NCBI GenBank assembly: GCA_018260615.1
Contig: JAGWDQ010000088.1
Span: forward strand, 18,307 to 44,675
Length of the DNA stretch: 26,369 nt
Source of the DNA: Candidatus Altarchaeum sp.
Lineage (GTDB): Archaea > Altiarchaeota > Altiarchaeia > Altiarchaeales > Altiarchaeaceae
Direction of reading: 5' to 3'
Of this stretch, positions 12,035 through 22,210 are shown in pieces. Below the pieces are notes generated by a model. That model made no database searches, was not told the DNA's origin, and worked only from the letters and a program-made list of their open reading frames with translations. How positions within the stretch are numbered: the first letter of the stretch is position 1; each line of letters begins with the position of its first letter. The position numbers and the translations under genes were made by a program.

Positions 12035-12520
12035 ATGTTGCCAATATGTAATATATGTGCAAAGACGAGGGTTTTGTGTGCATCTTGTGAAACAAAGTTA
12101 AAGAATGAGGAAATTTCGGAAATGGATGTGAAAATTGCCGAAATGATGTATGATTTTGGAAAAGGAGAGTTTGGCTTTGAAAAAGCGGTTGATGTAGGTG
12201 ATTTTGTCGTTGTATTGACGCGAAAAGAAGATATAGGTAAAATCATCGGGCCCGGAGGAGACAATTTAAGAAAAATAGAGGAGTCAATCGGAAAACTAAT
12301 AAAAGTTATGGGGGCAAGTTCAGCAGAAGAAATGATATATACTTTAATCTCTCCGGCAAATATTGTATCCACCAGCAAGTTATACAGGGCAGACGGAAGC
12401 ATTATGAGAAAGATTGCCATAAATAAGAATGATGCAGACAAGTTAAAGATGGATATATATTCTATAAAAAAGATTGTTTCAAATTTATTGCATGCCGATG
12501 TTGAGATTATTATCGGGTAA
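12035..12520 (+). CDS. Archaeal NusA-like KH-domain protein with N-terminal Cys-rich zinc motif
   Basis: CNIC...LCASC at the N-terminus, KH signature IGKIIGPGGDNLRKI. Confidence 0.75.
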   Translation: MLPICNICAKTRVLCASCETKLKNEEISEMDVKIAEMMYDFGKGEFGFEKAVDVGDFVVVLTRKEDIGKIIGPGGDNLRKIEESIGKLIKVMGASSAEEMIYTLISPANIVSTSKLYRADGSIMRKIAINKNDADKLKMDIYSIKKIVSNLLHADVEIIIG

Positions 12521-12540: not shown

Positions 12541-12579
12541 ATGTTGAAACAAGTAATTATTGTCCGAAACGATTCAAAA
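12541..12579 (+). pseudogene. Truncated copy 1 of the pth2 5' end (MLKQVIIVRNDSK), part of a 23-aa ORF ending at 12612
   Basis: 34/39 nt identical to pth2 12790-12828 by manual alignment. Confidence 0.8.
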
Positions 12580-12581
12580 GA

Positions 12582-12610
12582 ACTTTTTTCTTTTAAAAAA
12601 AGAAAAAAGT
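12582..12610. other. Perfect 13-bp inverted repeat (hairpin)
   Basis: acttttttctttt (12582-12594), aaa loop, aaaagaaaaaagt (12598-12610). Confidence 0.7.
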
Positions 12611-12654
12611 AAACATCAGAATAAATTTTTAGAATATTTGGAATAAATTTTCAA

Positions 12655-12683
12655 ATGTTAAAACAGATAATCGTTGTCCGAAG
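12655..12683 (+). pseudogene. Truncated copy 2 of the pth2 5' end (MLKQIIVVR), abutting CRISPR repeat 1
   Basis: 24/29 nt identical to pth2 12790-12818, with conservative I/V swaps. Confidence 0.8.
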
Positions 12684-12779
12684 GTTTAAATCGCACTATA
12701 TAGTATGGAAACAAATTAGGTAAAGGTAAGTTGGCTGCACAAGTGGCCCAGTTTAAATCGCACTATGTAGTATGAAAAC
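12684..12779 (+). CRISPR. Orphan CRISPR mini-array: two 29-nt repeats and one 38-nt spacer
   Basis: R1 GTTTAAATCGCACTATATAGTATGGAAAC (12684-12712) and R2 GTTTAAATCGCACTATGTAGTATGAAAAC (12751-12779) are 27/29 identical. GTTT...GAAAC ends and internal ACTA/TAGT palindrome are typical of type I-B-like repeats. Spacer is 12713-12750. No cas genes in this window. Confidence 0.85.
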
Positions 12780-12789
12780 ATATATAAAA

Positions 12790-13125
12790 ATGCTGAAACA
12801 GGTAATTATTGTCCGAAGTGATTTAAAACTGAGCAAAGGGAAGTTATCTGCACAGGTGGCACATGCGGCAATATCTGCGGCAGAAATTTCAAAATTTAAA
12901 AAGCAATGGCTCGCAGAAGGACAGAAAAAAGTTGTTGTAAAGTGCGAATGTCTTGATGATTTGCTTGAAATTTATGAAAGAAGCAAGACATTATCCATAG
13001 CGACATCATTAATTCAGGATGCCGGCCTGACAGAAATTCCGCCGGGGACAATTACCTGTGTAGGAATAGGTCCCGATGAAGAACAAAAAATAGATAAAAT
13101 CACTAAAAATTTAAAACTTTTATAG
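12790..13125 (+). CDS. pth2: Peptidyl-tRNA hydrolase Pth2
   Basis: KQVIIVRSDLKLSKGKLSAQVAHA, W..EGQKKVVVK, IQDAGLTEIPPGTITCVGIGP and IDKITKNLKLL motifs. ATG 12790 matches the family start. The track start at 12772 lies inside repeat 2 and is in frame. Confidence 0.96.
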   Translation: MLKQVIIVRSDLKLSKGKLSAQVAHAAISAAEISKFKKQWLAEGQKKVVVKCECLDDLLEIYERSKTLSIATSLIQDAGLTEIPPGTITCVGIGPDEEQKIDKITKNLKLL

Positions 13126-21520: not shown

Positions 21521-22210
21521 TTAACATTCAGCATCAACAACTATAAATTTCTTATCGCTGTTATATCCTAAAAATTTATGCTCATGGTTCATAATACCCT
21601 TTATAATTTCTTTCTCATTCTCCGATTCCTTATCTTTTGTCCTCTTTGCCTTTAAGTCCTCCGTCTTTCTGTTTGTAATTTTTTCGGCAACCTGCTCATC
21701 GTTCGTCGTCCATAATATATCTGCGGTTGAGTCGGAAAATATTCCTGCGATTCTTAAAATTTTTTCGGAAAAGTTTCCGCAGGAGCATACCTCTTCGCTA
21801 AATTTCCTGCACCGCTTACAATAATAGTCATAAATACCGAAAGTTCTTGAAATGAAGCCCTCAATATATACATATCCGAATGCCGGAATTTCGTCAATAA
21901 ATTTCACGGAATAAATTTTTTCATCAGGAATGTCTGTATTTATTACACTGACTTCTGTTTTTTTTGTGAATACAAAGAGGGGGGACTTTTCAGAAACAAC
22001 CACATTCACGACTTCAATTACATCTTCTTTTTTAAATTTCATTTTTTCCTTTTCGTTCCCCCATGCCATTATTTCCGCAATGGCACTTTCATCGCCAACC
22101 CTGCATTTTAAAATATCCCTGTCGGTAAATCGGACATCGCTAATTACCTTAACCCTTACTGAAATTTCCTCTTTGGGCTTTGCATCTGCAACTGAAATAA
22201 ATGTGGCCAT
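21521..22210 (-). CDS. OB-fold ssDNA-binding protein, RPA-like, with zinc finger
   Basis: First OB fold (VRVKV...VGDESA...MAWG), then YYCKRC...CSCG inside a second OB fold (GIFSDSTA). Confidence 0.7.
   Translation of the reverse strand: MATFISVADAKPKEEISVRVKVISDVRFTDRDILKCRVGDESAIAEIMAWGNEKEKMKFKKEDVIEVVNVVVSEKSPLFVFTKKTEVSVINTDIPDEKIYSVKFIDEIPAFGYVYIEGFISRTFGIYDYYCKRCRKFSEEVCSCGNFSEKILRIAGIFSDSTADILWTTNDEQVAEKITNRKTEDLKAKRTKDKESENEKEIIKGIMNHEHKFLGYNSDKKFIVVDAEC

Follow-up and report, generated by a model that had tools for sequence, protein, structure and literature searches.

Self-targeting spacers usually come to notice as isolated matches, and whether they are accidents, regulators or weapons is debated. 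DNA close to an array is a known source of self-spacers, mating Haloferax species acquire spacers from one another, and CRISPR-associated transposons make use of homing spacers. Stern et al. are said to have described self-targeting CRISPR spacers in 2010 in terms of autoimmunity, and neo-CRISPR loci reportedly arose by off-target Cas1-Cas2 integration in work by Nivala, Shipman and Church in 2018. Acquisition of a self-spacer can be followed by a mutation in, or the deletion of, its target (summarised in PMC12612501). Mini-CRISPR arrays are also carried by viruses (Medvedeva et al. 2019, PMC6858448), and regulatory mini-arrays such as CreA/CreR keep at least 10 nt of uninterrupted PAM-proximal match to a promoter (Shmakov et al. 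2023, PMC10120712). The locus considered here lies ahead of pth2 in a metagenome-assembled genome (MAG) of Altiarchaeum (G000; 2.2 Mb, 148 contigs, completeness 87%), in a window of 26,369 nt, that is, the whole stretch of DNA analysed. It was compared with other Altiarchaeum genomes (G001, G002 and G003) and with two assemblies of the same species as G000 (L093 and L094).

On the forward strand, two 29-nt CRISPR repeats, R1 (12684-12712) and R2 (12751-12779), enclose a 38-nt spacer (12713-12750), exactly as the initial annotation had placed and counted them. Each repeat is one nucleotide away (G17A in R1, G25A in R2) from the consensus of the arrays on contigs C73, C139 and C130 and on G001:C44. 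The ...CGTACT... variant that the initial annotation gave as the repeat of this lineage is exact in the G003 array, but the G000 consensus has C there, with R1 and R2 one base off. The family, GTTTAAATCG..GGAAAC, is of type I-B and genus-wide, and in G001 and G003 it is found after cas4-cas1b-cas2 plus a leader. The spacer length falls inside the 33-42 nt range of 82 ordinary-array spacers examined. On folding, the repeat is essentially unstructured, and an Rfam search returned only a sub-threshold CRISPR-DR42 match. Repeat and spacer length place the mini-array with the ordinary arrays of this family. Adaptation genes cognate to the repeat were not found in the 87%-complete MAG. The cas genes there comprise cas6-fic-(cas8-like) at the end of C100 and a full I-B operon, which goes with another repeat. 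Upstream of R1, the leader common to G001:C44, G001:C60, G003:C220, C139 and C130 is missing, and fossil pth2 sequence takes its place. L093 (JGI metagenome; contig of 92.6 kb) and L094 (ENA) have a layout identical to that of G000, from which they differ by one SNP in the spacer and a 3-nt deletion in R2; the homologous last repeat of G002 is truncated. The locus is a true type I-B mini-array at an ectopic site, and this Altiarchaeum species is fixed for it.

Of two candidate extensions of the array, the first was discarded and the second is doubtful. A 39-nt "spacer-sized" unit past R2 would include the short AT-rich linker at 12780-12789 (+), and this 10-nt linker arose by a lineage-specific deletion within the homologous 23-24-nt linker between last repeat and pth2 in G002 and G003 (the repeat-to-ATG distances in the three species are 10, 23 and 24 nt). 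A degenerate repeat R0 at about 12618-12646 has only some 11 of 29 matches in AT-rich sequence, and a fossil of the KH gene end plus intergenic DNA seems to fit better.

The mini-array sits between two genes whose adjacency is conserved among relatives. Upstream is an ORF for a KH-like protein of 161 aa (12035-12520, +), with faint KH_1 Pfam matches on its orthologues, and downstream is the resident, single-copy pth2 (12790-13125, +; PF01981), encoding peptidyl-tRNA hydrolase. The pth2 start was corrected to the ATG at 12790; an in-frame ATG at 12772, within R2, is missing from L093 and L094. KH, gins and pfkB are the neighbours of pth2, in a conserved chromosomal order peptidase C25-KH-pth2-gins, and about 7.7 kb around the locus is collinear with G001:C65, with housekeeping genes on either side. 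Transposase and integrase genes are absent nearby, and neither a virus nor a plasmid nor an integrated element carries the mini-array. Judging from the 11-28 nt that separate the KH stop from the pth2 ATG in array-less relatives, the array is probably part of the pth2 transcript.

The spacer corresponds to nt 37-74 of pth2 in sense orientation. It aligns without gaps, at 29 of 38 positions, to codons 13-25 of the resident gene (12826-12863, +), 76 nt beyond the spacer end, and a TTA (12823-12825, +) within the palindrome TTTAAA lies 5' of this protospacer-like site. This match, noted in the initial annotation, was confirmed: among 2000 spacer shuffles the best match within 2 kb on both strands never exceeded 25/38, and in the 2.2-Mb genome matches of at least 27/38 were limited, apart from the spacer itself, to the pth2 site. 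Mismatches fall at spacer positions 4, 6, 7, 9, 15, 21, 22, 30 and 36, with 4, 7 and 9 PAM-proximal and six outside the every-sixth positions. A score of 29/38 is also reached by pth2 of unrelated archaea, because the KLGKGKLAAQVAH motif is highly conserved. The spacer is clearly a pth2 fragment, but the resident gene is no specially close match to it. No exact source allele was found among the pth2 loci scored, the best reaching 33/38, and among the metagenomic pth2 loci scored (L013-L109), none from outside the genus exceeded 29/38. Viral contigs gave no match to the repeat or to a degenerate form of the 3' 32 nt of the spacer. The earlier proposal of a guide against a foreign pth2 holds insofar as better targets exist, at 32-33/38, but these are alleles of other Altiarchaeum and not of a symbiont or virus.

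Two fossil 5' ends of pth2 precede the array. The first (12541-12574, +; gene nt 1-34) is identical to pth2 alleles at 30 of 34 positions and begins 20 nt past the KH stop, which is the position of the true gene start in array-less relatives; its homology stops at the TTA/TTTAAA site. The second (12655-12683, +; gene nt 1-29) directly abuts R1 and is colinear with the spacer, the repeat substituting just 7 nt that contain the PAM. It matches the array-less alleles of G001 and P0006 at 27 of 29 positions and resident pth2 at 24 of 29. The filler between the fossils includes a perfect 13+13 palindrome (12582-12610) of a multicopy G000 hairpin family, with near-identical copies on C114, C70 (three), C139, C111 and C53. 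Directly ahead of the second fossil, GAATAA and a second intergenic-like stretch (12619-12654, +), compared by eye with L009 and L095, seem to resemble the KH 3' end and the start of the intergenic region of G003.

Homologous arrays occupy the same site in two further Altiarchaeum species, G002 and G003, with other pth2-derived spacers. Conservation among relatives extends to the position of the array, kept in three species, but not to its content: the spacers differ (38-nt forward in G000, 32-nt forward and the inverted X1 elsewhere) and are not conserved between species, and ten lineages have no array. In these ten the KH-pth2 gap is empty and 11-28 nt long (83 nt in one). Besides its pth2-derived spacers, the G003 array holds one ordinary spacer against a multicopy element, so such arrays were live adaptation sites. 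The last repeat and the linker are common to G000, G002 and G003. Downstream synteny (gins versus cbf5) places G000 with array-less G001, and by KH and pth2 distances G000 is roughly equidistant from both clades. These distances point to no donor or direction, and the idea that the 5' end was simply imported from a lineage like G001 or like G002 was set aside.

The fit of these spacers to the various pth2 alleles is uneven. Array-less alleles match the G000 spacer at 32-33 of 38 positions, and few Altiarchaeum alleles match it as badly as the resident gene does. In the array-less L140 and L142 the first 14-18 nt are free of mismatches and the flank is TTG or TTA, and against P0007 and G001 only two mismatches fall outside the every-sixth positions. 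Within the first 14 nt, the three array-bearing lineages have 4, 4 and 2 mismatches, versus 0-2 in the ten array-less ones. Against its own gene the G002 spacer scores 21/32, compared with 28/32 for the G003 allele, and the inverted G003 spacer scores 25/34 against its own gene but 30/34 against the G000 and G002 alleles. In both species no allele fits worse than the own gene, and nearly all own-gene changes are synonymous. In clade B (G002 and G003) an added AAA codon sets the TTA apart from the protospacer. The inverted G003 spacer, whose TTA is supplied by the opposite strand of the TTTAAA palindrome, has PAM-proximal mismatches to all alleles examined. Among the three array-bearing lineages, identity to one another is 78-84% for the pth2 5' ends and 86-90% for the flanking genes. 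Lineage-specific changes in the first 80 nt number 9-12 in array-bearing lineages versus 2-7 in the others, with no single comparison significant in a relative-rate test.

Repeats of this family also lie at about 11 further ectopic loci in G000, as solo repeats or as arrays of two or three repeats, some of which (C130, C139) carry a copy of the main leader. On three contigs, C139, C130 and C79, the spacer duplicates the sequence lying immediately beside the last repeat; further ectopic repeats are on C2, C87, C98, C109, C92 and C129. The C130 element, a cassette of about 340 nt with leader and three repeats, is inserted exactly at TTA|protospacer, as defined against contiguous empty sites in three congeners. 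Units of mini-arrays are also duplicated, as in the three identical units of C139 and spacers 1 and 2 of G003. Only one of the 82 ordinary-array spacers examined matches the G000 chromosome, and matching to neighbouring genes is therefore peculiar to the ectopic arrays. That one match (flank AAA) is too little to infer a PAM from ordinary arrays. A TTA flanks three of five informative protospacers, versus a background of 3.2% (P ~3e-4), and two in-register cases are flanked by ATA and by AAA or CAC. To our knowledge, ectopic repeats that abut the sequence copied by their own spacer, in register with a TTA of the empty site, have not been described.

The ectopic loci, about a dozen with that at pth2, had escaped the initial annotation. 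Several solo repeats stand 1-4 nt ahead of an ATG, and the repeat has TTTAAAT about 27 nt upstream. That the repeat might be a portable promoter is nevertheless no more than speculation: 1184 long ORFs are without a TATA-like upstream peak near -27, and the repeat-to-ATG distance varies.

The anatomy of the locus, its recovery in independent assemblies, the homologous arrays of G002 and G003, the comparison of alleles and the repetition of the pattern across the genome suggest, with a probability that we put at a little over one half, that the mini-array is what remains of an attack by CRISPR on pth2, with recombinational repair and escape in its wake, and not a regulator. A recombination scar of autoimmunity was one of the options first raised for this locus, and it is the one favoured by the allele fits, the fossils at the PAM and the recurrence elsewhere. 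A spacer would have been captured from the 5' end of some pth2 allele at a TTA or TTG PAM. CRISPR attack on pth2 would then have been repaired by recombination with repeat-spacer DNA as template, leaving the fossils as scars, one stopping at the PAM and the other fused to R1 at the former PAM spot, and restoring an intact escape-variant pth2 downstream. The resident gene is respelled, mostly synonymously and also at PAM-proximal positions, so that the guide no longer fits it and may now be inert towards its own gene. The same process could have produced the other repeat and mini-array insertions of G000 that abut their own protospacers. What is seen at pth2 agrees with self-targeting, the spacer being homologous to a single-copy gene of its own chromosome. 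It also agrees with escape, as the targets of G000 and G002 differ from their spacers near the PAM, an added codon displaces the PAM itself in G002 and G003, and the terminal repeat is eroded in L093, L094 and G002. Against this reading, one would not expect three species to keep a mere relic at the same position, and spacers derived from neighbouring DNA could also come from a hot spot of adaptation beside an array already in place. Moreover, Cas3 cutting is presumed, the route of repair is conjectural in its details, and the PAM is putative, two in-register flanks not being TTA.

It is possible, if doubtful, that the mini-array is instead an active guide against the array-less pth2 allele, linked to a recoded and immune pth2. 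In polyploid heterozygotes, or following an exchange of DNA, the rival allele would be cut by the Cascade-Cas3 of the host. Repair would then copy the array, which would spread like a drive, or the cut would simply keep the rival from being imported again. The array-less alleles would be suitable targets, with matches of 32-33/38, a full PAM-proximal 14-18 nt beside TTG or TTA and, in P0007 and G001, only two mismatches outside the every-sixth positions. The guide is located at its own target locus, where insertion replaces the PAM in the fossil, and the joint of the second fossil with R1 is what might be expected from a broken native 5' end invading a donor spacer of the X1 type. G000, G002 and G003 have their last repeat and linker in common, in conflict with the gins/cbf5 synteny, and horizontal movement of the locus is therefore suggested. 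However, the 5' ends are more diverged than their flanks, which fits repeated escape better than one recent drive allele, and an identical pattern of alleles would arise if the spacer merely preserved the ancestral spelling of its lineage. The inverted G003 spacer is mismatched PAM-proximally to every allele examined, no sample was found with filled and empty alleles together, and G000 is about equidistant from both clades. The idea that the mini-array is a minimal selfish element without proteins of its own, acting as a CRISPR gene drive in nature or as an allele-exclusion system, is accordingly a tentative one.

An adaptation hot spot free of autoimmunity appears unlikely. An array would have landed here for unrelated reasons, Cas1-Cas2 would have sampled the adjacent DNA, and with interference weak or absent the spacer and the gene would have drifted apart. 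The ordinary anti-element spacer of G003 points to an active integration site, pth2-derived spacers in both orientations at TTA are expected for PAM-guided acquisition, and mini-arrays grow by unit duplication (C139, G003). Yet drift leaves unexplained why the own gene fits poorly in three species while distant lineages fit perfectly in the PAM-proximal part. Nor does it account for fossils that stop at the PAM site, or for the in-register abutment of repeat and protospacer elsewhere, including the cassette at TTA|protospacer. In addition, no conserved leader stands ahead of R1.

The initial annotation had also proposed a cis-encoded guide of the CreA/CreR kind, by which Cascade would bind the 5' coding region of pth2 without cleavage and tune its expression. 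A variant considered in addition is that the Cas6 cut of R2 sets the 5' end of the pth2 mRNA. Such a guide would agree with the pair of repeats, with a spacer that matches in part next to a PAM-like TTA and lies 76 nt from its target, with the retention of an array at this site in three species and with the probable place of the array within the pth2 transcript. This proposal did not survive well and is now very improbable: mismatches fall at positions 4, 7 and 9, the target is coding sequence and not a promoter, and in G002 the own gene matches at 21/32 with a displaced PAM. The spacer is unconserved between species, ten lineages do without an array, and the decay of R2 in the sister strains has removed its 3' end together with its in-frame ATG. 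Finally, CRISPR regions are easily misassembled and the MAG is in 148 contigs, but an assembly artefact or chance repeat has next to no probability, as the same structure recurs in three independent assemblies, two of them from different samples with private SNPs and indels, two further species have homologous arrays, and the 9 differences in 38 positions between spacer and gene make it impossible to join them through shared k-mers.

As a relic of autoimmunity, the pth2 locus would be a natural record of rare completeness for an essential gene, with guide, PAM, fossils and respelled gene, ten empty-site lineages and independent versions in two species. Altiarchaeum repeats and leader-array cassettes abut their own protospacers at several loci, which suggests that ectopic arrays and genome rearrangement can arise when spacers recombine with their chromosomal targets. 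If the reading as a weapon against rival alleles were true, the locus would be a natural counterpart to synthetic gene drives, and the in-register ectopic arrays (aroA, C139, C79) would be further examples. On either reading, the consequences of CRISPR autoimmunity become directly testable in an abundant subsurface archaeon.

Compared with known systems, the locus shares with CreA/CreR the repeat-spacer-repeat layout and a partially matching spacer near its target and beside a PAM. It differs in that the PAM-proximal match is not contiguous (4, 6, 7 and 9 are mismatched) and that the target is the coding sequence of a non-cas housekeeping gene far from any cas operon, whereas CreA/CreR act on a cas or toxin promoter in or beside the cas locus; the pth2 spacer, moreover, is unconserved across species. 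With neo-CRISPR loci it has in common an array-like unit in or beside an ordinary gene, and the duplicated pth2 segment ATG..CGAAG, at 29 nt, is of repeat length. That duplication encloses a 106-nt insert and not a spacer, however, and where neo-CRISPR loci combine a local "repeat" with a foreign spacer, canonical repeats at pth2 flank a local one. The likeness to mini-arrays of inter-genome conflict lies in the single spacer, the reliance on host Cas in trans, the better fit of relatives' alleles and a guide placed beside its target, but the pth2 array stands in conserved chromosomal synteny, with no virus or plasmid and no transposase or integrase. In self-targeting followed by escape, as here, the spacer comes from the host's own kind of gene and the target is changed PAM-proximally or, as in clade B, its PAM is displaced; the decaying terminal repeat of the pth2 mini-array is a further likeness. 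Unlike such cases, the pth2 spacer lies in a mini-array beside its target and not in a main array, the target is an essential translation gene that has been respelled largely synonymously, and the arrangement persists in three species, with turnover of its spacers and with the fossil ends of the gene still in place.

The mini-array consists of two 29-nt direct CRISPR repeats, R1 (12684-12712) and R2 (12751-12779), that enclose a 38-nt spacer and are flanked by a KH-like gene (12035-12520) on the 5' side and by pth2 (ATG 12790, stop 13125) on the 3' side. As the initial annotation had proposed, an ungapped alignment places the spacer on pth2 12826-12863 with 29/38 nt identical, with mismatches at exactly the positions it had listed and with a TTA immediately 5' of the match. 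None of 2000 shuffled spacers exceeded 25/38 within 2 kb, and this site is the sole match of at least 27/38 in the 2.2-Mb genome, in which pth2 is a single-copy gene. The names carried by homologous Pth2 proteins assign the organism to Candidatus Altiarchaeum. The repeat given in the initial annotation proved to be that of the array in G003, another Altiarchaeum lineage; the consensus of the genome studied here (G000, a MAG) differs from it at one base, and both R1 and R2 deviate from this consensus by a single mismatch. Because the same layout is present in two other assemblies of the species from different samples (L093 and L094), with a single SNP in the spacer and 3 nt deleted from the 3' end of R2, misassembly of the mini-array can be ruled out. 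This deletion abolishes an in-frame ATG inside R2 (12772-12774), which is unlikely to matter. Between L093 and the window, the KH gene and array region are 99-100% identical whereas the 3' three-quarters of pth2 (12870-13125) differ by 6%, a contrast that hints at recombination inside the gene.

The 5' end of pth2 is found three times at the locus. Upstream of R1, copy 1 (12541-12574) matches the gene up to nt 34, i.e. as far as the TTA/TTTAAA site, and occupies the position of the gene start in array-less relatives. It is followed by filler with a multicopy palindrome, then by a second intergenic-like stretch, after which copy 2 (12655-12683, pth2 nt 1-29) is directly continuous with R1. The spacer continues copy 2 colinearly, as parts of a single pth2 5' end in which the repeat replaces only the 7 nt that hold the PAM. 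Copy 2 has its best matches in the alleles of array-less lineages (27/29, vs 24/29 to the resident gene downstream of R2).

Comparison of the KH-pth2 junction across 13 Altiarchaeum lineages revealed no array in ten of them. Nine of these ten have a gap of 11-28 nt between the KH gene and pth2; in the tenth (L144), the upstream gene is a different one and the gap after it is 83 nt. The three array-bearing lineages, namely the window species, G002 ('Altiarchaeales archaeon A3') and G003, have the last repeat and an AT-rich linker before the ATG in common and differ in their spacers. The G002 spacer (32 nt) covers the same pth2 segment as the window spacer, with the same 3' junction. The G003 array contains three variant repeats. 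Two near-identical spacers in it match a multicopy element, so they are regarded as ordinary defence spacers, and the third corresponds to pth2 nt -2 to 34 in reverse complement. Forward and inverted protospacers begin on opposite sides of the palindrome TTTAAA, which makes TTA the 5' flank of each; among the five sites from which the PAM was inferred, TTA flanks 3/5 informative protospacers (an aroA case included) vs a 3.2% background. TTTAAA also stands immediately before the first ATG (TTTAAAATG) in 130 of 1184 long G000 ORFs, with a very sharp peak at -6 and no TATA-like peak near -27; as TTA looks like the PAM, many gene starts would lie next to a PAM. At the G002 pth2 locus (L010/L107), and in G000 at C109:~21700-21890 (two copies) and C136:19471, an insert of 42-45 nt splits the repeat between ..CACTAT and GTAGTAT... 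The insert contains a short hairpin and has ..ATCTCC..GAGGTGA.. as its conserved core; it looks like a tiny element whose insertion site is the CRISPR repeat itself. Contig C73 terminates in the 5' half of a repeat followed by TTTTAA.

For none of the pth2-derived spacers in these three lineages is the linked gene the best-fitting allele. The match of the window spacer to the resident gene is the joint lowest among Altiarchaeum alleles, and unrelated archaeal pth2 genes score the same 29/38; array-less lineages reach 32-33/38, the first 18 nt being perfect in L140 and the first 14 nt in L142, with TTG or TTA flanks. Type I complexes leave every sixth position unpaired, and against the P0007/G001 allele only the mismatches at positions 19 and 32 fall outside these positions. 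The G002 spacer scores 21/32 with its own gene and 28/32 with the G003 allele, and the inverted G003 spacer 25/34 with its own gene, where the changes are nearly all synonymous, and 30/34 with G000/G002. Over the 14 nt nearest the PAM, the array-bearing lineages show 4, 4 and 2 mismatches, vs 0-2 in the ten without an array; in clade B, an extra AAA codon separates TTA from the protospacer. In a relative-rate count, array-bearing genes had roughly double the number of lineage-specific changes over their first 80 nt, with equal rates in the rest of the gene; the excess is significant in no single comparison. Because it has no PAM-proximal match there, the guide is considered inert towards the resident gene.

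The repeat of the mini-array occurs at ~11 further G000 loci as solo copies or arrays of 2-3 repeats. At C139, C130 and C79, the sequence immediately next to the last repeat is duplicated in the spacer. The C139 array comprises three identical units and part of a leader, and the sequences flanking it on either side are found on different contigs in all three congeners. The C130 element, a ~340-nt cassette of ~165 nt of main-array leader and three repeats, is located at the 3' end of aroA, at a site that is empty and contiguous in three congeners and where TTA precedes the protospacer. Of the ordinary-array spacers, in contrast, only 1 of 82 examined matches the G000 chromosome. Repeats lying beside their own protospacers, in place of the PAM, thus recur in the genus. 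Solo repeats were also observed between cas4 and cas1 of G003, 4 nt upstream of the cas1 start (C220:1973-2001, L125), and in G000 1-4 nt before ATGs (C139, C79, C2, C129) and, in degenerate form, directly or 15 nt after tRNA gene 3' ends (C92:705-733, C129:1734-1762). By eye, one G000 repeat continues the reading frame of a glycogen-debranching-like gene after its codon 7, with no stop (C87:24626-24654), and another takes the place of the stretch of a methyltransferase gene that would link the SAM-binding motif to the later part (C109:21582-21610).

In G001 and G003, the repeat family of the mini-array directly follows cas4, type I-B cas1 and cas2, together with a conserved leader. On C131, the G000 MAG (87% complete) carries all genes of an I-B operon (cas6, cas8b1, cas7, cas5, cas3, cas4, cas1, cas2). 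The array of this operon, with >100 units, is built on a different repeat, and the operon's Cas1 shares only 53% identity with that adjoining the mini-array family; a second locus, cas6-fic-(cas8-like), breaks off at the end of contig C100. The cognate system is probably present in G000, incompletely assembled. The Fic-domain protein is encoded between cas6 and the cas8-like gene (C100:11458-12372 in locus coordinates, L139), and an unannotated 442-aa P-loop-like protein with ~12 genome paralogues between cas3 and cas4 (C131:11277-12605, L138). Stretches of ~60-210 aa, 40-68% identical to an internal part of the C131 Cas3, recur in many unrelated loci (C121, C60, C44, C109, C53, C129, C96, C125), which suggests a mobile module inserted in Cas3. 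In G001 (C60:6100-6740, L122), a second main-array leader copy leads into a repeat that breaks off after its first 8 nt; next come a ~55-aa ORF with four CxxC pairs and then two 5'-truncated and three normal repeats, so that a protein gene lies within the first repeat of an array. One spacer of the G001 C44 main array (L123, from locus position 2034) is the reverse complement of the repeat plus ~10 nt, showing that the adaptation machinery samples CRISPR-array DNA.

Escape from self-attack is the most likely origin of the pth2 mini-array. A pth2 spacer would have been taken up at a TTA/TTG PAM and the gene attacked by Cascade-Cas3, survivors having repaired the break by recombination with repeat-spacer DNA as template and the spacer as the only available homology. 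Repair would have joined the native 5' end to a repeat (copy 2-R1) and trapped the old protospacer between two repeats, with a respelled complete gene downstream; a separate second event may have produced copy 1, ending at the PAM. A live ectopic array drawing spacers from neighbouring DNA would also give such spacers, and probably contributes in G003, but this leaves the fossils and the in-register junctions without explanation. The same data fit, less probably, an element made of array and recoded gene that would cut the rival allele and spare its own; however, identity among the three array-bearing lineages is 78-84% at the pth2 5' end vs 86-90% for flanking genes, and G000 is roughly equidistant from both clades of the genus.

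Compared with known systems, the unit has the look of a CreA/CreR regulatory mini-array, and a cis-encoded guide tuning pth2 had been put forward on this basis. The defining features of such arrays are missing: the spacer has no contiguous PAM-proximal match and is not conserved, and the target is neither a promoter nor a cas or toxin gene (PMC10120712). Neo-CRISPR is ruled out by the canonical repeats, and location on a mobile element by conserved synteny over ~7.7 kb and by the absence of matches to spacer or repeat in the viral contigs searched. The most fitting category for the locus is that of a self-targeting spacer with escape. Its form is unusual: the ectopic array sits at the very site its spacer targets, within an essential gene's locus, and is accompanied by fossils and by parallel versions in three species.
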